Below are positions 50,631 through 61,100 of a stretch of DNA of 64,000 nt, in pieces (the stretch's first letter is position 1; each line of letters opens with the position of its first letter). Source of the stretch: Escherichia phage vB_EcoM_NBG2. The stretch lies in the sequence record NC_054925.1, one strand, 5' to 3'. The notes below the pieces were generated by a model. It worked only from the letters and a program-made list of their open reading frames with translations. It was not told where the DNA came from and searched no databases. The position numbers and the translations under genes were made by a program.

Positions 50631-53600
50631 ATGGCCGAGATTAAAAGAAAGTTCAGAGCAGAAGATGGTCTGGACGCAGGTGGTGATAAAATAATCAACG
50701 TAGCTTTAGCTGATCGTACCGTAGGAACTGACGGTGTTAACGTTGATTACTTAATTCAAGAAAACACAGTTCAACAATATGATCCAACTCGTGGATATTT
50801 AAAAGATTTTGTAATCATTTATGATAACCGCTTTTGGGCTGCTATAAATGATATTCCAAAACCAGCAGGAGCTTTTAATAGCGTACGCTGGAGAGCATTA
50901 CGTACTGATGCAAACTGGACAACTGTTTCATCAGGACCTTATCAATTAAAATCGGGCGAATCAATTTCAGTTGATACTGCAGCTGGTAATGACATTACAT
51001 TTACTTTACCATCTTCTCCAATTGACGGTGATACTATCGTTCTCCAAGATATTGGAGGAAAACCTGGAGTTAATCAAGTTTTAATTACAGCTCCGGTACA
51101 AAGCATTGTAAATTTTAGAGGTCAGCAAGTACGTTCAGTACTAATGACTCATCCAAAATCACAGATAGTTTTAATTTTTAGTAATCGTCTGTGGCAAATG
51201 TATGTTGCTGATTATAGCAGAGAAGCTGCAATTGTAACACCGGCAAGTCTTTATCAGGCGCAATCTAACGATTTTATCGTGCGTAGATTTACTTCCGCTG
51301 CGCCGATTAATATTAAACTTCCAAGATTTGCTAATCATGGCGATATTATTAATTTCGTTGATTTAGATAAATTAAATCCTCTTTATCACACAATTGTTAC
51401 TACATATGATGAAACAACTTCAGTACAAGAAGTTGGAACTCATTCCATTGAAGGTCGTACATCGATTGACGGTTTCTTGATGTTTGATGATAATGAGAAA
51501 TTGTGGAGATTGTTTGACGGGGATAGTAAAGCACGTTTACGCATTATAACGACTAATTCTAATATTCGTCCAAATGAAGAAGTTATGGTATTTGGTGCGA
51601 ATAATGGAACAACCCAAACAATTGAACTTCAGCTTCCGACTGATATTTCTGTTGGTGATACTGTCAAAATTTCCATGAATTACATGAGAAAAGGACAAAC
51701 AGTTAAAATCAAAGCTGCCGGTGAAGATAAAATTGCTTCTTCAGTTCAATTGCTGCAATTCCCAAAACGCTCAGAATATCCGCCTGAAGCTGAATGGGTT
51801 ACAGTCCAAGAATTAGTTTTTAATGGTGAAACTAATTATGTTCCGGTTTTACAACTTGCTTATATAGAAGATTCTGACGGAAAATACTGGGTAGTACAGC
51901 AAAACGTTCCAACTGTAGAAAGAGTAGATTCTTTAAATGATTCTACTAGAGCAAGATTAGGCGTAATTGCTTTAGCTACACAAGCTCAAGCTAACGTCGA
52001 TTTAGAAAATTCTCCACAAAAAGAATTAGCAATTACTCCAGAAACGTTAGCTAATCGTACTGCTACAGAAACTCGTAGAGGTATCGCAAGAATAGCAACT
52101 ACTGCTCAAGTTAACCAGGATACTACATTCTCTTTTGCTGATGATATTATCATCACTCCTAAAAAGCTGAATGAAAGAACAGCTACTGAAACTCGCAGAG
52201 GTGTTGCTGAAATTGCTACACAGCAAGAAACTAATGCAGGAACCGATGATACTACAATCATCACTCCTAAAAAGCTTCAAGCTCGCCAAGGTTCTGAATC
52301 ATTATCTGGTATTGTAACTTTTGTATCTACTGCAGGAGCTACTCCAGCTTCTAGCCGTGAATTAAATGGTACGAATGTTTATAATAAAAACACTAATAAT
52401 TTAGTTGTTTCACCTAAAGCTTTGGATCAGTATAAAGCTACTCCAACACAACAAGGTGCGGTAATTTTAGCAGTTGAAAGTGAAGTAATTGCTGGACAAA
52501 GTCAGGAAGGATGGGCAAATGCGGTTGTAACGCCAGAAACGTTACATAAAAAGACATCAACTGATGGAAGAATTGGTTTAATTGAAATTGCTACGCAAAG
52601 TGAAGTTAATACAGGAACTGATTATACTCGTGCAGTCACTCCTAAAACTTTAAATGACCGTAGAGCAACTGAAAGTTTAAGCGGTATAGCTGAAATTGCT
52701 ACGCAGGTTGAATTCGACGCAGGCGTCGACGATACTCGTATCTCTACACCATTAAAAATTAAAACCAGATTTAATAGTACTGATCGTACTTCTGTTGTTG
52801 CTCTATCTGGATTAGTTGAATCAGGAACTCTCTGGGACCATTATACCCTTAATATTCTTGAAGCAAATGAGACACAGCGTGGTACACTTCGTGTAGCTAC
52901 ACAAGTCGAAGCTGCTGCAGGAACATTAGATAATGTTTTAATAACTCCTAAAAAGCTTTTAGGTACTAAATCTACTGAAGCACAAGAAGGTGTTATTAAA
53001 GTTGCAACTCAGTCTGAAACTGTGACTGGAACATCAGCAAATACTGCTGTATCTCCAAAAAATTTAAAATGGATTGTGCAGAGTGAACCTACCTGGGCAG
53101 CTACTACTGCGATAAGGGGATTTGTTAAAACTTCATCTGGTTCAATTACGTTCGTTGGTAATGATACAGTTGGTTCAACACAGTCATTAGAATTGTACGA
53201 GAAAAATAGTTATGCAGTATCGCCATACGAATTAAACCGTGTATTAGCAAATTATTTGCCGTTAAAAGCAAAAGCTGTAGATAGTAATTTACTGGATGGT
53301 CTAGATTCATCTCAGTTCATTCGTAGGGATATTGCACAAACGGTTAATGGTTCACTAACCTTAACCCAACAAACGAATCTGAGTGCCCCTCTTGTATCAT
53401 CTAGTACTGCTACGTTCGGTGGATCAGTTTCAGCAAATAGTACACTAACCATTTCTAATACTGGAACAGCAACTCGTCTGATTTTTGAGAAAGGACCTCA
53501 AACTGGAACGAACCCGGCTCAAACGATGACAGTCAAAGTGTGGGGAAATCAATTTAGTGGTGAATCAGACACAACGCGTTCTACTGTATTTGAAGTTAGT

Positions 53601-54500
53601 GATGAAACGTCTAGTCACTTTTATTCTCAGCGCAATAAAGCTGGTAATATAACATTTAATATCAATGGTACAGTAACACCGATAAATGTGAATGCTTCAG
53701 GAACATTGAATGCGAATGGCGTTGCAACATTCGGTAGTTCAGTTACTGCTAATGGCGAATTTATCAGTAAATCGTCGAATGCTTTTAGAGCAATAAATGG
53801 TGATTACGGATTCTTTATTCGTAATGATGGTGCTAACACCTATTTTATGCTTACTGCATCTGGTGATCAGACTGGTGGGTTTAATGGATTACGTCCATTA
53901 TCAATTAATAATCAATCTGGTCAGGTTACAATTGGTGAAAGCTTAATCATTGCCAAAGGTGCTACTATAACTTCAGGTGGTTTAACTGTTAACTCGAGAA
54001 TTCGTTCTCAGGGTACTAAAACCTCTGATTTATATACCCGTGCGCCAACATCTGATACTGTAGGATTCTGGTCAATCGATATTAATGATTCAGCCACTTA
54101 TAACCAGTTCCCGGGTTATTTTAAAATGGTTGAAAAAACTAATGAAGTGACTGGGCTTCCATACTTAGAACGCGGTGAAGAGGTTAAATCTCCTGGTACG
54201 CTGACTCAATTTGGTAACACACTCGATTCGCTTTACCAAGATTGGATTACTTATCCAACGACCCCAGAAGCGCGCACCACTCGCTGGACGCGTACATGGC
54301 AGAAAACCAAAAATTCTTGGTCAAGCTTTGTTCAGGTATTTGATGGAGGTAACCCTCCTCAGCCATCTGATATCGGTGCTTTACCATCTGATAATGCTAT
54401 AATGGGGAATCTTACTATTCGTGATTTCTTACGAATTGGTAATGTTCGCATTATTCCTGACCCAGTGAATAAAACGGTTAAATTTGAATGGGTTGAATAA
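50631..54500 (+). CDS. 34: long tail fibre proximal subunit gp34
   Basis: 1289 aa as in T4, internal repeat motifs, synteny 34-35-36-37. Confidence 0.95.
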   Translation: MAEIKRKFRAEDGLDAGGDKIINVALADRTVGTDGVNVDYLIQENTVQQYDPTRGYLKDFVIIYDNRFWAAINDIPKPAGAFNSVRWRALRTDANWTTVSSGPYQLKSGESISVDTAAGNDITFTLPSSPIDGDTIVLQDIGGKPGVNQVLITAPVQSIVNFRGQQVRSVLMTHPKSQIVLIFSNRLWQMYVADYSREAAIVTPASLYQAQSNDFIVRRFTSAAPINIKLPRFANHGDIINFVDLDKLNPLYHTIVTTYDETTSVQEVGTHSIEGRTSIDGFLMFDDNEKLWRLFDGDSKARLRIITTNSNIRPNEEVMVFGANNGTTQTIELQLPTDISVGDTVKISMNYMRKGQTVKIKAAGEDKIASSVQLLQFPKRSEYPPEAEWVTVQELVFNGETNYVPVLQLAYIEDSDGKYWVVQQNVPTVERVDSLNDSTRARLGVIALATQAQANVDLENSPQKELAITPETLANRTATETRRGIARIATTAQVNQDTTFSFADDIIITPKKLNERTATETRRGVAEIATQQETNAGTDDTTIITPKKLQARQGSESLSGIVTFVSTAGATPASSRELNGTNVYNKNTNNLVVSPKALDQYKATPTQQGAVILAVESEVIAGQSQEGWANAVVTPETLHKKTSTDGRIGLIEIATQSEVNTGTDYTRAVTPKTLNDRRATESLSGIAEIATQVEFDAGVDDTRISTPLKIKTRFNSTDRTSVVALSGLVESGTLWDHYTLNILEANETQRGTLRVATQVEAAAGTLDNVLITPKKLLGTKSTEAQEGVIKVATQSETVTGTSANTAVSPKNLKWIVQSEPTWAATTAIRGFVKTSSGSITFVGNDTVGSTQSLELYEKNSYAVSPYELNRVLANYLPLKAKAVDSNLLDGLDSSQFIRRDIAQTVNGSLTLTQQTNLSAPLVSSSTATFGGSVSANSTLTISNTGTATRLIFEKGPQTGTNPAQTMTVKVWGNQFSGESDTTRSTVFEVSDETSSHFYSQRNKAGNITFNINGTVTPINVNASGTLNANGVATFGSSVTANGEFISKSSNAFRAINGDYGFFIRNDGANTYFMLTASGDQTGGFNGLRPLSINNQSGQVTIGESLIIAKGATITSGGLTVNSRIRSQGTKTSDLYTRAPTSDTVGFWSIDINDSATYNQFPGYFKMVEKTNEVTGLPYLERGEEVKSPGTLTQFGNTLDSLYQDWITYPTTPEARTTRWTRTWQKTKNSWSSFVQVFDGGNPPQPSDIGALPSDNAIMGNLTIRDFLRIGNVRIIPDPVNKTVKFEWVE

Positions 54501-54508
54501 GAGGTATT

Positions 54509-55627
54509 ATGGAAAAATTTATGGCAGAGTTTGGACAAGGATATGTCCAAACGCCATTTTTATCGGAAAGCAATTCAGTAAGATATAAAATAAGTATAGC
54601 GGGTTCTTGCCCGCTTTCTACTGCAGAAGGACCATACGTTAAATTTCAGGATAATCCTGTTGGAAGTCAAACATTTAGCGCAGGACTTCATTTAAGAGTT
54701 TTTGACCCTTCTACAGGAGCATTAGTTGATAGTAAGTCATATGCTTTTTCGGCTTCAAATGATACTACATCAGCTGCTTTTGTTGGTTTCATGAACTCTT
54801 TGACGAATAATAGACTTGTTGCTATATTAACTAACGGAAAAGTTAATTTTCCTCCTGAGGTAGTATCTTGGATAAGAACCGCAGGAACGTCTGCTTTTCC
54901 ATCTGATTCTGTATTGTCAAGATTTGACGTATCATATGCTGCCTTTTATACTTCTTCTAAAAGAGCTATTGCATTGGAACATGTTAAACTAAGTAATAGA
55001 AAAAGCACAGATGACTATCAAACTATTTTAGATGTTGTATTTGATAGTTTAGAAGACGTCGGAGCTACAGGATTTCCTAAAAGAACATATGAAAGTGTCG
55101 AGCAATTCATGTCAGCAGTTGGTGGAACTAATAACGAAATTGCGCGATTACCAACTTCAGCTGCTATAAGTAAACTATCTGATTATAATTTAATTCCTGG
55201 TGATGTTCTTTATCTTAAAGCACAGTTATATGCTGATGCTGATTTACTTGATCTTGGAACTACAAATATATCCATTCGTTTTTATGATGCATCAAATGGA
55301 TATATTTCTTCAACACATGCTGAGTTTACTGGACAAGCTGGGTCATGGGAATTAAAGGAAGATTATGTAGTTATTCCAGAAAATGCAGTAGGATTTACGA
55401 TATATGCACAAAGAACTGCTCAAGCTGGTCAAGGTGGCATGAGGAATTTAAGCTTTTCGGAAGTGTCAAGAAATGGAAGTATTTCGAAACCTGCTGAATT
55501 TGGTATCAACGGCATTCGTGTTAATTATATCTGTGAATCTGCTTCACCTCCGGATATAATGGTACTTCCTACGCAAGCATCGTCTAAAGCTGGTAAAGTA
55601 TTTGGGCAAGAATTTAGAGAAGTATAA
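54509..55627 (+). CDS. 35: long tail fibre hinge protein gp35
   Basis: 372 aa, synteny. Confidence 0.9.
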   Translation: MEKFMAEFGQGYVQTPFLSESNSVRYKISIAGSCPLSTAEGPYVKFQDNPVGSQTFSAGLHLRVFDPSTGALVDSKSYAFSASNDTTSAAFVGFMNSLTNNRLVAILTNGKVNFPPEVVSWIRTAGTSAFPSDSVLSRFDVSYAAFYTSSKRAIALEHVKLSNRKSTDDYQTILDVVFDSLEDVGATGFPKRTYESVEQFMSAVGGTNNEIARLPTSAAISKLSDYNLIPGDVLYLKAQLYADADLLDLGTTNISIRFYDASNGYISSTHAEFTGQAGSWELKEDYVVIPENAVGFTIYAQRTAQAGQGGMRNLSFSEVSRNGSISKPAEFGINGIRVNYICESASPPDIMVLPTQASSKAGKVFGQEFREV

Positions 55628-55689: not shown

Positions 55690-56346
55690 ATGGCTGATTT
55701 AAAAGTAGGTTCAACAACTGGAGGCTCTGTCATTTGGCATCAAGGAAATTTTCCATTGAATCCAGCCGGTGACGATGTACTCTATAAATCATTTAAAATA
55801 TATTCAGAATATAATAAGCCACAAGCTGCTGATAACGATTTCGTTTCTAAAGCTAACGGTGGTACGTATTTAAATAAAGTAATTTTTAATAAAGGAATGA
55901 CTGTTCCTGGTGCAGGGTCAGGTGACAACGGTATTTTTGCTGGTCCTGGTGATAATGCCACATATGATACTACAAATATGGATATTGTTTCGTGGTATGG
56001 TATTGGTTTTAAATCATCACAGGGTTCAGCGGGTAGAACTGTAGTAATTAACACGCGAAATGGAGATATTAGCTCAAAGGGTGTAATTGAAGCATCACAA
56101 ATACGCGCAACTTCATTATCTCCAGTAAATAATTATGACCTTACACGGAAAGATTATGTTGATGGAGCAATAAATATTGTTACAGCAAACGCAAACTCTA
56201 GGGTATTACGCTCTGGAGATACTATGACAGGAAATTTAACTGCGCCAAACCTTTTTTCGCAGAATCCTGCATCTCAACCTTCACATGTTCCACGATTTGA
56301 TCAAATTGTTATTAAGGATTCTGTTCAAGATTTCGGCTATTATTAA
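55690..56346 (+). CDS. 36: long tail fibre distal connector gp36
   Basis: 218 aa, synteny. Confidence 0.9.
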   Translation: MADLKVGSTTGGSVIWHQGNFPLNPAGDDVLYKSFKIYSEYNKPQAADNDFVSKANGGTYLNKVIFNKGMTVPGAGSGDNGIFAGPGDNATYDTTNMDIVSWYGIGFKSSQGSAGRTVVINTRNGDISSKGVIEASQIRATSLSPVNNYDLTRKDYVDGAINIVTANANSRVLRSGDTMTGNLTAPNLFSQNPASQPSHVPRFDQIVIKDSVQDFGYY

Positions 56347-56354
56347 GAGGACTT

Positions 56355-59300
56355 ATGGCTACTTTAAAACAAATACAATTTAAAAGAAGCAAAACTGCAG
56401 GAGCACGTCCTGCCGCTTCAGTATTAGCCGAAGGTGAATTGGCTATAAACTTAAAAGACCGCGTACTTTTTACTAAAGACGACCAAGGAAATATCATTGA
56501 TCTTGGTTTTGCTAAGGGCGGTAGCATTGACGGGAATGTTATTCATATAGGAAACTATAATCAAACTGGTGATTATACTTTAAATGGCGCTTTCACTCAG
56601 ACAGGTAATTTTAATTTAACTGGTATTGCTCGAGTAACTCGCGATATTATTGCCGCCGGGCAGATTATGACTGAGGGCGGAGAACTTATTACAAAAAGTT
56701 CAGGTACAGCGCATGTTCGTTTTTTCGATGGCAATAACCGCGAACGCGGAATAATTTATGCCCCGGCTAATGATGGATTAACTACACAAGTACTTAATAT
56801 CAGGGTTCAAGACTACGCCGCTGGTGATGAAAGCACCTATGCATTTTCAGGCAGTGGCCTATTTACTTCACCTGAAGTATCAGCATGGAAATCTATTTCG
56901 TCTCCACAAATTCTGACCGATAAAGTTATTACAGATGGGAAGAAGACGGGCGATTATGATATATCTTCATTAGCAAATAATAATTCTGACACAGATAAAA
57001 ACTATTTGCGCATTGTACGTACCGACCCAGCGGCCGCAATGCTCCATGAAATTTGTGAAAATAACGGCATCAGTTGGTATTCTGGTTCAACCCCTACTGA
57101 TTACATGTTGTCATTTTCTTATTCCGGTGGGCTTCAAGCAGGCCATTCAATTGCAGTAGGTATGGAATCAAGTCCTATGACATATTCAGCCTTAGGTAAA
57201 GGTTCTATTGCTATTGGCGATAATGATACCGGATTTAAATGGCATCAGGACGGATATTTTCATGCAGTAAACAACGGAACAAGAACTTTCATTTACGGTC
57301 CTGCGGAAACACAAAGCCTTAGAAAAATGGTTATGGGTTATTCTCCGGATGGGATTCTTATGACAACGCCACCGACAGAAAACTATGCATTAGCCACTGT
57401 TGTTACTTACCATGATAATAACGCGTATGGTGACGGTCAAACTCTTTTAGGATATTATCAAGGCGGTAACTATCATCACTATTTCCGCGGTAAGGGTACC
57501 ACAAACATTAATACTCATGGCGGTTTGTTAGTTACTCCAGGCAATATTGACGTTATTGGTGGTTCGGTTAATATTGATGGTAGAAATAATAATTCAATTT
57601 TAATGTTTAAAGGCTATACCATGGGTCAAAGCTCCGTTGATAACATGTATATAGCTGTTTGGGGAAATACTTTTACTAATCCAAGTGAAGGCACCCGTAA
57701 AAATGTCATGGAAATTTCTGATGATATTGGATGGATGCATTATATTCAACGAACAACTGCGGGTAAAATCGAATCGGTTATAAATGGCACCCAGATTGTT
57801 AATGAAAACTTTACAGTAGTAAAAAATGCTACATTTGACGGTACAATCAGCGCAGCCGGTGAAATCGCGACAAATGCTGTAAATGGTCTTCGCATTTGGA
57901 ACGCAGATTATGGAGCTATTTTTAGACGTTCAGAAGGCAGTCTTCATATTATTCCAACTGCTTATGGTGAAGGTAAACATGGCGATATCGGTCCACTTCG
58001 CCCGTTTAGTATGGCTTTAGATACCGGTAAAGTTACTATTCCAGATTTACAATCAAGTTACAATACGTTCGCTGCGAACGGCTATATTAAATTTGTTGGT
58101 CATGGCGCTGGCGCTGGTGGTTATGATATTCAATATGTTCAAGCGGCTCCTATTTTCCAGGAAATCGATGATGATGCTGTAAACAAATATTATCCGATTG
58201 TTAAGCAAAAATACCTTCAAGGTAAAGCAGTTTGGTCTTTAGGTACTGAAATTAATTCAGGTACATTCGTGATACACCATATCAAAGAAGATGGAACACA
58301 GGGCCATACATCAAGATTTAATGCTGATGGTACAGTTAACTTCCCGGATAACGTTCTGGTCGGCGGTGATATTAACATGAAAGGCTTGATGACTTTTGAC
58401 GCCGGACGTTTAGGATCACGAGATTATTTTAAATTTAACCATTGGGGTGATAGCAATAACGCTCGTGATAACATCATCCAGTTAGAAGATAGTCAAGGCG
58501 CCCATTTTTCCACTGAACGTACTTTAGCGACAGGTGCAATTAAAACTCGTTTCTTTGGCGAAACATTCACTGATGGTACATTATACTTAAATCAGATGAA
58601 TAATAGCTCTGAACGATTCTCTATCAACAATTGGGGAAATTCAGAAGTTGGTCGCGCGGCAGTATTGGAAGTCGGCGATTCAAAAGGTTATCACTTCTAT
58701 GCTGAACGCAGGACAGATAACAGTTTGATGTTTGATGTTGCTGGTTCTTTGACCGTGCATGGACCTAGCGGAATAACCATCAAAAACTCAACTGGTGCTC
58801 GCCATATCTGGTTTAGAGATGATAGCGATGCAGAAAAGGCTGTTATCTGGGCTACAGATGAGGGTATTTTACATATACGAAATAATCATGGGGGTTCATT
58901 TAGTCATCACTTCCAGGGTGCAATGATTAAAGCGGGAGAGCAAGTTCCTTATAATAGTGAATACGCTCTTATCCGTGGTGATGTTTTTGGTGGTGCTTGG
59001 GATGACTGGCGCAACCGTCCTGCTGGTATTCTCTTAGATTGTCAGGATTCACATACCCGAGCATATTCAATTTGGAAAGCAACTCATTGGGGTGTTGATC
59101 ATCTTGCGGCAATGGGTGTTCATGCTGTCGGTGGTCAAGCTACCGTAATGATGCATATGAACAAAGGCGGCTGGTATTCATGGACTGCAAATGGTGATTT
59201 CATATCTAGTGCGTCGGTTTACTGTAACGATGTTTATATTCGTTCCGACCGTCGTCTGAAAATTAACGTTGAAGACTACGAAGAAAATGCGGTAGATAAG

Positions 59301-59597
59301 GTAAATAAACTAAAAGTTAAAACCTACGATAAAGTTAAGTCTCTTTCTGACCGAGAAGTCATCGCACATGAGATTGGTATTATCGCGCAGGATTTACAAG
59401 AAATTTTACCGGAAGCTGTTAGCACTTCTAATGTCGGATCTCTTGATAACCCAGAAGAGATTTTAACAATTTCTAACTCTACAGTGAATGCTCTTTTAAT
59501 TAAGGCTATTCAGGAAATGAGTGAAGAAATTAAAGAATTGAAAACGCCTCTCTTTACTAAAATTGCTCGCAAAATTAGTAAATATTTTAAATTCTAA
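56355..59597 (+). CDS. 37: long tail fibre distal subunit gp37 with C-terminal intramolecular chaperone-like domain
   Basis: 1080 aa; C-terminal about 117 aa begins ...YIRSDRRLKINVEDYEENAV..., resembling self-cleaving chaperone domains of other phage fibres. Confidence 0.9.
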   Translation: MATLKQIQFKRSKTAGARPAASVLAEGELAINLKDRVLFTKDDQGNIIDLGFAKGGSIDGNVIHIGNYNQTGDYTLNGAFTQTGNFNLTGIARVTRDIIAAGQIMTEGGELITKSSGTAHVRFFDGNNRERGIIYAPANDGLTTQVLNIRVQDYAAGDESTYAFSGSGLFTSPEVSAWKSISSPQILTDKVITDGKKTGDYDISSLANNNSDTDKNYLRIVRTDPAAAMLHEICENNGISWYSGSTPTDYMLSFSYSGGLQAGHSIAVGMESSPMTYSALGKGSIAIGDNDTGFKWHQDGYFHAVNNGTRTFIYGPAETQSLRKMVMGYSPDGILMTTPPTENYALATVVTYHDNNAYGDGQTLLGYYQGGNYHHYFRGKGTTNINTHGGLLVTPGNIDVIGGSVNIDGRNNNSILMFKGYTMGQSSVDNMYIAVWGNTFTNPSEGTRKNVMEISDDIGWMHYIQRTTAGKIESVINGTQIVNENFTVVKNATFDGTISAAGEIATNAVNGLRIWNADYGAIFRRSEGSLHIIPTAYGEGKHGDIGPLRPFSMALDTGKVTIPDLQSSYNTFAANGYIKFVGHGAGAGGYDIQYVQAAPIFQEIDDDAVNKYYPIVKQKYLQGKAVWSLGTEINSGTFVIHHIKEDGTQGHTSRFNADGTVNFPDNVLVGGDINMKGLMTFDAGRLGSRDYFKFNHWGDSNNARDNIIQLEDSQGAHFSTERTLATGAIKTRFFGETFTDGTLYLNQMNNSSERFSINNWGNSEVGRAAVLEVGDSKGYHFYAERRTDNSLMFDVAGSLTVHGPSGITIKNSTGARHIWFRDDSDAEKAVIWATDEGILHIRNNHGGSFSHHFQGAMIKAGEQVPYNSEYALIRGDVFGGAWDDWRNRPAGILLDCQDSHTRAYSIWKATHWGVDHLAAMGVHAVGGQATVMMHMNKGGWYSWTANGDFISSASVYCNDVYIRSDRRLKINVEDYEENAVDKVNKLKVKTYDKVKSLSDREVIAHEIGIIAQDLQEILPEAVSTSNVGSLDNPEEILTISNSTVNALLIKAIQEMSEEIKELKTPLFTKIARKISKYFKF

Positions 59598-59603
59598 CAA
59601 CAA

Positions 59604-59621
59604 GGGGGAAATGCCCCCTTT
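59604..59621 (+). terminator. weak hairpin after gene 37
   Basis: GGGGG-AAAUG-CCCCC followed by only UUU. Confidence 0.4.
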
Positions 59622-59633
59622 GGAGTATAAATT

Positions 59634-60413
59634 ATGGCAGTAGTTGGAGTTCCTGGCTGGATTGGAAGTTCAGCCGTAAATGAAACGGGTCAGCGCTGGA
59701 TGAGTCAAGCAGCTGGTCAATTAAGATTGGGTGTTCCTTGCTGGATGAGTCAATTTGCAGGTCGCTCAAGAGAAATTATTCATACACTTGGAGCAGACCA
59801 TAACTTCAATGGTCAATGGTTCCGAGATAGATGTTTTGAGGCAGGTAGTACACCTATAGTGTTTAATATCACTGGAGATTTAGTATCATATTCTAAAGAT
59901 GTTCCTTTATTCTTCATGTACGGAGATACACCGAATGAATATGTTCAGTTGAATATACACGGCGTAACGATGTATGGACGTGGCGGTAATGGCGGTAGCA
60001 ATAGTCCTGGTTCAGCTGGAGGTCATTGTATTCAAAACGATATTGGTGGGAGACTAAGAATTAATAATGGCGGAGCTATTGCTGGAGGCGGCGGTGGCGG
60101 CGGCGGCGGCAACAGGGGTAGACTATCCTTTGGCGGCGGAGGCGGTCGTCCATTTGGCGCTGGTGGGTCTTCCTCTCATATGAGTGCTGGTGCAACCAGC
60201 GGCACTATTTACGCTCCGGGTGCAGGATCTGTCGGTGAGGGGTCTCTTAGTGCATATACAGGCGGGAATGGCGGTGAAGTTGGCTCCGCAGGAGGTAGAT
60301 GTAATACTCACGGTACCGGTACAGAATATGACGGCGGTGCTGCTGGTTATGCCGTCATAGGGTCTACACCGACATGGCAAAATGTTGGAGCAATATATGG
60401 TCCAAGAGTATAA
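59634..60413 (+). CDS. 38: tail fibre tip adhesin gp38 (T2/T6-type, glycine-rich motifs)
   Basis: 259 aa with several poly-Gly motifs separated by short variable segments; unlike the 183-aa T4 gp38 chaperone. Confidence 0.85.
60084..60110 (+). repeat. (GGN)9 codon tract inside gene 38
   Basis: ggaggcggcggtggcggcggcggcggc encoding nine consecutive Gly. Confidence 0.9.
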
Positions 60414-60443
60414 TTTGAATAAATATCCTTAAAAGGAGGGTCT

Positions 60444-61100
60444 ATGGCAGCACCTAGAATATCATTTTCGCCCTCTGATATTCTATTTGGTGTTCTAGAT
60501 CGCTTGTTCAAAGATAATGCTACCGGGAAAGTTCTTGCTTCCCGGGTAGCTGTCGTAATTCTTTTGTTTATAATGGCGATTGTTTGGTATAGGGGAGATA
60601 GTTTCTTTGAGTACTATAAGCAATCAAAGTATGAAACATACAGTGAAATTATTGAAAAGGAAAGAACTGCACGCTTTGAATCTGTCGCCCTGGAACAACT
60701 CCAGATAGTTCATATATCATCTGAGGCAGACTTTAGTGCGGTGTATTCTTTCCGCCCTAAAAACTTAAACTATTTTGTTGATATTATAGCATATGAAGGA
60801 AAATTACCTTCAACAATAAGTGAAAAATCACTTGGAGGATATCCTGTTGATAAAACTATGGATGAATATACAGTTCATTTAAATGGACGTCATTATTATT
60901 CCAACTCAAAATTTGCTTTTTTACCAACTAAAAAGCCTACTCCCGAAATAAACTACATGTACAGTTGTCCATATTTTAATTTGGATAATATCTATGCTGG
61001 AACGATAACCATGTACTGGTATAGAAATGATCATATAAGTAATGACCGCCTTGAATCAATATGTGCTCAGGCGGCCAGAATATTAGGAAGGGCTAAATAA
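60444..61100 (+). CDS. t: holin T
   Basis: 218 aa; single N-terminal TM and large periplasmic domain; sequence recognised as T4 T. Confidence 0.95.
   Translation: MAAPRISFSPSDILFGVLDRLFKDNATGKVLASRVAVVILLFIMAIVWYRGDSFFEYYKQSKYETYSEIIEKERTARFESVALEQLQIVHISSEADFSAVYSFRPKNLNYFVDIIAYEGKLPSTISEKSLGGYPVDKTMDEYTVHLNGRHYYSNSKFAFLPTKKPTPEINYMYSCPYFNLDNIYAGTITMYWYRNDHISNDRLESICAQAARILGRAK

Follow-up and report, generated by a model that had tools for sequence, protein, structure and literature searches.

The Peptidase_S74 family, or "chaperone of endosialidase", has the K1F endosialidase as its founding member, and its fold consists of a trimeric central coiled-coil, a mixed alpha/beta body and beta-hairpin tentacles. 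In tail fibres with a T4-type tip, the gp37 tip is itself the adhesin and gp38 is a non-structural chaperone. A second, T2-type arrangement has been published, in which gp37 is processed and a gp38 adhesin is encoded downstream (PMC3157838, PMC7917993). The C-terminal processing of T2 gp37 goes back to Drexler et al. 1986, in the form in which PMC3157838 cites it. The closest solved relative of the module treated here is gp37 of Salmonella phage S16, whose structure (PDB 6F45; Dunne et al. 2018) is reported on in PMC7917993 and PMC7289586. The S16 chaperone, 113 residues long, is autocleaved, which exposes the docking site for gp38, according to PMC7917993. For the fPS phages a cut was predicted in 2021 at DVYIR^SDGRLKI, and their DVYIR strand was proposed as the gp38 docking surface (PMC7917993).

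Here we describe the corresponding locus of Escherichia phage vB_EcoM_NBG2 (NC_054925.1), using a window of 64,000 nucleotides, the whole stretch of DNA that was analysed. We consider it very probable that residues 964-1080 of gp37 form an S74 chaperone, that the Ser964/Lys969 pair cuts the Arg963-Ser964 bond, and that the tip so exposed is capped by gp38. The features are collected in Table 1.

Table 1. Features of gene 37, its C-terminal module and gene 38, in window coordinates
Feature	Position	Strand	Basis
Gene 37, long tail fibre distal subunit precursor (1080 aa, 118.1 kDa)	56355..59597	+	ORF translation
Predicted mature gp37, residues 1-963 (104.9 kDa)	56355..59243	+	Homologous cut sites in S16, T5, MYRF
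N958-D-V-Y-I-R963, final strand of mature gp37, where gp38 presumably docks once cleavage has occurred	59226..59243	+	Homologue conservation
Ser964 codon TCC, predicted catalytic nucleophile	59244..59246	+	Pfam S74 profile position 1; homologue conservation
Lys969 codon AAA, predicted general base of the Ser-Lys dyad	59259..59261	+	Conservation, +5 spacing
Peptidase_S74 core, residues 964-1022, including the G1008-I-I-A-Q-D-L...L-P-E-A-V motif	59244..59420	+	Pfam PF13884
Predicted beta-hairpin (~1022-1039) followed by long helix (~1041-1061)	59418..59537	+	Low-confidence AF2 monomer
Basic C-terminal tail T1064-PLFTKIARKISKYFKF1080, subtype-specific, beyond the coiled-coil	59544..59594	+	Homologue comparison
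Gene 38, T2/S16-type tail-fibre adhesin (259 aa)	59634..60413	+	Pfam, PDB matches
gp38 N-terminal attachment domain, residues 1-42, with Trp9, Trp22, Trp37	59634..59759	+	Trp positions from translation

gp37 ends in a Peptidase_S74 module

The translated gene 37 product has an N-terminus typical of gp37, and megablast matches to the gene underlie features annotated as "long tail fiber distal subunit" in Tequatrovirus genomes. The best of these matches is IME340 (98.1% at the nucleotide level), whose chaperone module is 100% identical to that of gp37 here. Pfam model PF13884, Peptidase_S74, matches gp37 with an E-value of 2.9e-14 and 53.5 bits (curated cutoff 22), over positions 1-57 of the 58 in the profile, and profile position 1 falls on Ser964. 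On the K1F endosialidase the same profile places position 1 at S911 and position 6 at K916; it picks up T2 gp37 and a Tequintavirus fibre too, in each case from the SD.R.K motif on. No NCBIfam model was found for gp37 or gp38. BLASTP and narrow-profile hhalign comparisons of the gp37 module with the K1F chaperone were both without significance, so that the link to K1F is through the shared Pfam model only.

Searches with the single gp37 sequence pointed the same way. Against the PDB, phmmer recovered S16 gp37 (6f45_A) at E 3e-11, in an alignment that pairs YCNDVYIRSDRRLK with YCRDLNVSSDRRIK, and the MYRF ICA domain (7dc3) at E 0.008; a narrow family profile run against the PDB reached nothing beyond these. 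A scan of 1.84 billion representative proteins returned 6611 relatives of the module at E<=0.001. Among homologues is the Tequintavirus fibre, otherwise unrelated, in which the similarity (41% identity, E 1e-16) starts exactly at Ser964. The homologues vary widely in length, yet in 161 of the 165 the module ends 30 residues or less from the protein C-terminus. One protein of 5473 aa, seen in the alignment that included it, carries repeated modules.

Taken together, sequence comparisons support the core reading that residues 964-1080 constitute a Peptidase_S74 intramolecular chaperone module. An earlier note, made from the letters of this DNA, had marked off roughly the last 117 residues of gp37, with the Ser964 codon at the position listed in Table 1, and had compared them to self-cleaving chaperone domains. 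ORF translation bears out the extent and the codon, and the two strings that the note quoted, YIRSDRRLKINVEDYEENAVDKVNKLKV and IAQDLQEILPEAV, are both present in gp37. Its figure of about 13 kDa agrees with the computed mass of residues 964-1080 (117 aa, 13,292 Da), and the proposed likeness, which greatly exceeds what chance would produce, is upheld by the PF13884 match and by the intact Ser/Lys dyad.

Catalytic dyad and predicted cut site

The translation around Ser964 reads NDVYIR-S964-D965-R966-R967-L968-K969. The Ser is present in 159 of 161 aligned homologues and the Lys in all 161, with S964, D965 and K969 together conserved in 159-161 of the 161. Their spacing of +5 is that of S911/K916 in K1F, S1264/K1269 in T5 pb1 and S587/K592 in MYRF. 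Further into the module, G1008 and A1011 are invariant (166/166 sequences), while Q1012 is found in 159 and P1019 in 162. The NDVYIR stretch before Ser964 is invariant in 12 close homologues. Additionally, alignment with the S16 chain identifies R963 as the only Arg within about 50 residues before the predicted gp37 cut; the S16 chain has an additional Arg at -6 (YCRDLNVS). In T5, Arg1250 of the neighbouring chain acts as folding sensor and oxyanion stabiliser, and an arginine with such a role has also been described for K1F.

We place the probable cut of gp37 at Arg963|Ser964 (59243|59244), before Ser964 and not after it, because the bond that is cut precedes the conserved Ser in T5 pb1 (Thr1263-Ser1264; PMC4690869), in MYRF (P586-S587, by mass spectrometry; PMC8326128) and in S16 gp37, for which PMC7917993 gives DLNVS^SDRRIKK. 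Such a cut would be expected to free a 117-residue fragment of 13.3 kDa starting SDRRLK. The earlier note had put the cut on the other side, after Ser964, and this is probably off by one residue. Self-cleavage by an S74 chaperone C-terminal to Ser964, with Ser964 as the last residue of mature gp37, has a precedent in phi29 gp12, which alone was modelled with the Ser kept on the mature protein; the density there is weak, however, and was termed less convincing in that same paper (PMC4690869). In both T5 and K1F the conserved Ser departs with the chaperone (PMC4690869), and with the MYRF bond and the VS^SD site of S16 also against it, we regard a cut after Ser964 as unlikely.

A different question is what performs the cleavage. 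The published account of T2 and T6 states that the C-terminus of gp37 is proteolytically cleaved but leaves the agent unnamed (PMC3157838), wording with which a separate host or phage protease would be compatible. For gp37 here we assign next to no probability to such an enzyme replacing autoproteolysis, since recombinant T5 pb1 (PMC4690869) and recombinant MYRF (PMC8326128), each expressed alone, are no longer cleaved when the equivalent Ser or Lys is changed to Ala, and the dyad is conserved in gp37.

Predicted fold, gp38 and the fibre tip

An AF2 monomer of gp37 residues 931-1080, built from an alignment of 13 sequences, was of low confidence (pLDDT 53, pTM 0.35). It nevertheless shows a helix, a hairpin and a long helix in that order, the hairpin being the best block (pLDDT 74-76), and this order of elements agrees with the description of the T5 chaperone (PMC4690869). 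From this we infer that the hairpin and the long helix likely represent the chaperone "tentacle" and the trimeric coiled-coil. Foldseek with the low-confidence model returned no match in the PDB at E<=0.001; the second entry in its ranking was the MYRF ICA domain, with an E-value of 0.13.

Gene 38 starts 37 nt past the stop codon of gene 37. Its product is a tail-fibre adhesin by Pfam (PF05268, GP38, E 5.7e-70; PF21721, Gp38_N, E 9.4e-21) and by its PDB matches, to S16 gp38 (6f45_D, E 1.3e-53 over residues 5-256) and to 9v85 (E 2.2e-78). The strand before the predicted catalytic Ser is conserved alongside it, as NDVYIR here, NVYIR in T2 and DVYIR in the fPS phages. A T4-type tip was rejected for this phage, in that an S74 module closes gp37 and its gp38 is of the adhesin family. 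The suggestion made previously of a T2-type pathway is thus well matched by the locus, with an S74 module in gp37 and a T2/S16-type gp38 adhesin encoded downstream.

A rival reading, with which the low-confidence fold prediction is compatible, is that of a degenerate S74 domain, kept uncleaved for trimerisation, with gp38 binding elsewhere or, like its T4 counterpart, having no role beyond that of a chaperone in assembly. This we judge highly improbable: every family-invariant residue, the Ser-Lys dyad included, is intact, and gp38 belongs to adhesin family PF05268, carries Gp38_N and matches S16 gp38. Moreover, the tip would be masked if the chaperone stayed on, which is what happens in T5, where the uncleaved form does not block adsorption (PMC4690869).

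We therefore keep to the self-cleaving module capped by gp38; for cleavage as such, the precise bond cut, the role as a chaperone and the docking of gp38, we infer from the homologues what gp37 would do. Three copies of the module would nucleate the trimeric distal fibre and set its register. After correct folding of the tip, each chain would use its Ser964/Lys969 dyad to cut its own Arg963-Ser964 bond, and the 13.3 kDa fragment beginning SDRRLK would depart. The freshly exposed tip, ending ...NDVYIR, would then be capped by the gp38 adhesin, the presumed carrier of receptor specificity.

The module also has a distinctive end. Its basic tail is shared at 21 of 22 positions with two homologues (P0006 and P0008), in modules otherwise only about 66% identical, and is absent from another homologue (P0001), from T2 and from others; the last 25 residues of gp37 have a pI of 9.9. 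It is very unlikely, in our estimate, that this tail gives the freed 13 kDa chaperone trimer a second job, such as membrane or nucleic acid binding or release timing, and the tail may instead be a plain recombination remnant.

The main value of these results is for annotation. The mature virion protein should be recorded as gp37(1-963), and the host range of this phage should be ascribed to gp38, not gp37. In fibre expression or engineering, the chaperone must stay in the construct and its loss is to be expected, and Ser964 or Lys969 are the residues to mutate in designing a non-cleaving control.

Comparison with described systems

The gp37 module is an ordinary member of an already described type of self-cleaving folding module, with nothing new in it. 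T2 gp37 processing has been in print since 1986; the S16 structure followed in 2018 and, in 2021, the prediction of the same cut for the fPS phages. Because the mechanism, structures and cut-site motif are already in the literature, the locus brings no gain in understanding of the S74 family.

The nearest counterpart is S16, where gp37 is likewise the distal long-tail-fibre subunit of a T-even-like myovirus, with the gp38 adhesin gene next to it and an S74 module bearing the SDRR(L/I)K motif at its extreme C-terminus. The phmmer homology between the two gp37 proteins spans tip and chaperone, and homology of the two gp38 proteins extends along almost the whole of both. The module here is 117 residues, four more than the 113 of S16, the predicted cut is preceded by NDVYIR instead of DLNVS, and the basic tail PLFTKIARKISKYFKF is unaligned with the S16 chain in the phmmer comparison. 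T2 offers the same gene and the same pathway, with NVYIR-SDIRLK, a Pfam S74 match beginning at that Ser and a gp38 adhesin downstream. Its module, however, is only 43% identical to the one here and is shorter, at 99 residues and without the basic tail, and T2 gp37 also differs in the mosaic make-up of its distal shaft and tip domains.

The fPS phages have a nearly identical site, DVYIR^SDGRLKI against DVYIR SDRRLKI here, and a published prediction for them (PMC7917993) already has both this cleavage and the docking of gp38. Upstream of the last strand, the distal shaft is of a different mosaic type: of the 263 residues before the predicted cut in gp37 here, fPS-65 matches no more than the first 51.

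More distant members of the family share the Ser/Lys dyad but serve other proteins. T5 pb1 has the S74 assignment and the Ser/Lys dyad at +5, and its cleavage unmasks a functional tip, as we propose for gp37 (PMC4690869). T5 pb1 nevertheless comes from a siphovirus, and its mature tip binds the receptor directly, without the gp38 cap envisaged here; its chaperone has 133 residues, and the domain upstream is unrelated to gp37. The K1F endosialidase and the eukaryotic MYRF ICA domain fall in the same Pfam family and have the Ser-Lys dyads S911/K916 and S587/K592, and in both, trimer-dependent self-cleavage is coupled to folding of a triple beta-helix. K1F has no detectable pairwise similarity to the gp37 module, and the cargo of these chaperones differs from a gp37 fibre, being a tailspike enzyme in K1F and a membrane-bound transcription factor in MYRF.

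Tail-fibre cluster and the gp37 C-terminal module

In its 3' part the window carries the gene cluster for the long tail fibres of a Tequatrovirus-type T-even phage, all on the plus strand.

Genes of the long-tail-fibre cluster and the reading frame downstream
Feature	Coordinates	Strand	Remarks
gp34	50631..54500	+	
gp35	54509..55627	+	
gp36	55690..56346	+	
gp37	56355..59597	+	1080 aa
gp38	59634..60413	+	
218-aa ORF	60444..61100	+	position under holin-annotated features in related genomes

An earlier note had proposed that gp37 ends in a self-cleaving-chaperone-like module, and the profile check bears this out: residues 964-1022 hit Pfam PF13884 (Peptidase_S74, "chaperone of endosialidase") at E 2.9e-14; the score of 53.5 bits compares with a cutoff of 22, and the match spans positions 1-57 of the 58 in the profile. 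The sequence contains all the gp37 strings quoted in the note. Position 964 is a Ser (codon TCC at 59244..59246), in the context YCNDVYIR-S964-D-R-R-L-K969-INVEDYEENAVDKVNKLKV, and IAQDLQEILPEAV occupies residues 1010-1022. Profile position 1 thus falls precisely on Ser964. K1F gp17 (1064 aa), the founding member, reads PIVT910-S911-NGER-K916, and its match starts with profile position 5 at residue 915; its catalytic residues Ser911 and Lys916 therefore occupy positions 1 and 6, which in gp37 are Ser964 and Lys969. The matches in T2 gp37 (NVYIR-SDIRLK) and in a Tequintavirus fibre likewise start from position 1 at their Ser. Direct comparison of the gp37 module with the K1F chaperone gave no significant similarity.

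Among solved structures, the S16 distal fibre chain 6f45_A is nearest in sequence (E 3e-11); its alignment spans tip and chaperone and pairs YCNDVYIRSDRRLK with YCRDLNVSSDRRIK. The MYRF ICA domain (7dc3) and a tail fibre in 8jov come next in the PDB. An AF2 monomer model built on a shallow alignment reached a pLDDT of only 53; at that low confidence, its order of elements (two helices, a hairpin at ~1022-1039, a long helix at ~1041-1061 and a tail helix) is plausibly compatible with the S74 family. A Foldseek search with this model returned no significant match, the MYRF ICA domain standing second at E 0.13. The S74 fold is thus predicted for gp37 on the basis of sequence homology to solved members. 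No gp37 residue was assigned as the arginine folding sensor of the family; over the ~50 residues ahead of the predicted cut its sole Arg is R963.

When 1.84 billion representative proteins were scanned exhaustively with HMMER, 6611 relatives came up at E<=0.001. We analysed 165 homologues, drawn from the best 150 of the 6611, one of which another search had also returned, and the 16 other proteins of that search. Within this sample the module ends no more than 30 residues from the C-terminus in 161 of 165, in proteins from ~90 to >2500 residues long. Lys969 is kept in all 161 aligned homologues, Asp965 in 160 and Ser964 in 159; Gly1008 and Ala1011 are present in 166/166 aligned sequences, Pro1019 in 162 and Gln1012 in 159. 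One giant fibre-like protein from the scan (P0166, 5473 aa, outside the window) has four S74 modules (SD.RLK ... GVIAQ; seen in the alignment, with four matched stretches in the scan), at least three of them internal, with long repeat regions between, and might represent a poly-fibre whose self-cleavage yields several pieces.

Predicted position of the cleaved bond

The residue preceding the catalytic Ser varies among homologues (R, T, A or S), as expected where modules join. By BLASTP, the Tequintavirus fibre C-terminus is 41% identical to gp37 (E 1e-16) from exactly Ser964, with nothing upstream, which places the module boundary at the predicted cut position.

The earlier note had the cut fall after Ser964, and here it departs from the characterised members. 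The bond cut is Thr1263-Ser1264 in T5, where the Ser is lost together with the chaperone, as is also reported for K1F (PMC4690869); it is P586-S587 in MYRF, by mass spectrometry (PMC8326128), and DLNVS^SDRRIKK in S16 (PMC7917993). In fPS phages a cut between Arg and Ser has been predicted, DVYIR^SDGRLKI (PMC7917993), in a motif nearly identical to that of gp37. Cleavage on the C-terminal side of Ser964 is very improbable: phi29 gp12, alone among members, was modelled with its Ser retained, but the density for that residue is weak (PMC4690869), and in T5, K1F, MYRF and S16 the cut lies ahead of the Ser or the Ser leaves with the chaperone. From these cuts and the fPS prediction, the bond expected to be cut in gp37 is Arg963/Ser964 (59243|59244). 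The interval 59244..59597 given in the earlier note is exactly the fragment from this predicted cut plus the stop codon; computed masses are 13,292 Da for residues 964-1080 (117 aa) and 104,854 Da for residues 1-963.

Fibre tip and gp38

By analogy with homologues, from which all four steps are drawn, three C-terminal modules would come together and template the trimeric tip; correct folding would bring Ser964 beside Lys969, whereupon every chain would cut itself; the chaperone trimer would depart; and the exposed NDVYIR end would be bound by gp38. In S16, autocleavage of the last 113 residues bares the gp38 docking surface (PMC7917993; PMC7289586). In T5, S1264A stops cleavage and the uncleaved protein loses receptor competition (PMC4690869), and MYRF cleavage is stopped by S587A and by K592A (PMC8326128).

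The T2-type pathway suggested earlier finds its partner in the adhesin-type gp38 encoded here. Its Pfam hits are GP38 (E 5.7e-70) and Gp38_N (E 9.4e-21); in the PDB it matches the S16 adhesin 6f45_D (E 1.3e-53, residues 5-256) and a GFP-gp38 fusion in 9v85. The fibre tip is of T2 type; a T4-type tip was rejected, as gp37 ends in an S74 module and gp38 falls in the adhesin family. Trp9, Trp22 and Trp37 in the gp38 N-terminus are counterparts of the tryptophan "prongs" by which S16 gp38 docks on the processed gp37 tip (PMC7917993). The glycine-rich motifs of gp38 include ten consecutive glycines, a run that exceeds the one in the 9v85 gp38 by one or two residues.

The gene 37-38 spacer (59604..59636) has a hairpin, GGGGG-AAATG-CCCCC (59604..59618), followed by TTT only and flagged by the consensus scan on the minus strand alone. 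Downstream lie GGAG (59622..59625) and TATAAATT (59626..59633), which adjoins the gene 38 ATG at 59634 and resembles the T4 late-promoter consensus TATAAATA.

Mosaicism and comparison with known systems

Residues 446-552 of gp37 (57690..58010) score 33.8 bits (E 5.4e-08; cutoff 27) against Pfam PF21446, the domain that trimerises the C-terminus of gp34, so the distal and proximal half-fibres have a domain in common. The distal shaft and tip (residues 701-963; 58455..59243) are of a mosaic type other than the chaperone's, with 70-88% identity in the listed MX01, phiC120 and RB5-type phages; T6 and fPS-65 match just the first 51 residues, and the fPS phages have the near-identical cut-site motif despite the fPS-65 match ending there.

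The chaperone module itself looks mosaic. Residues 964-1058 resemble modules of the type seen in the homologue P0001, and the last 22 residues (1059-1080; 59529..59594), IKELKTPLFTKIARKISKYFKF, match two other homologues, P0006 and P0008, at 21/22, although their modules upstream of the tail are just ~66% identical to that of gp37. With a pI of 9.9 over its final 25 residues, gp37 has a basic tail; in T2 and most others the end is instead a coiled-coil of acidic or neutral character. The tail either marks a recombination joint or is an element under constraint of its own, and its basic stretch (1064-1080) is kept across otherwise diverged modules.

The predicted self-cleaving module is a correct yet ordinary annotation. 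Publications already cover the S74 family with its mechanism and structures, T2 gp37 processing has been known since 1986, the S16 gp37-gp38 complex is solved, and the same cut in a near-identical motif is a published prediction for fPS phages. The identical module is present in a deposited genome: phage vB_EcoM_IME340 is 98.1% identical in nucleotides to 58600..60450, and the last 117 residues of its gp37, a gene its record labels merely "long tail fiber distal subunit", are 100% identical to those in the window.
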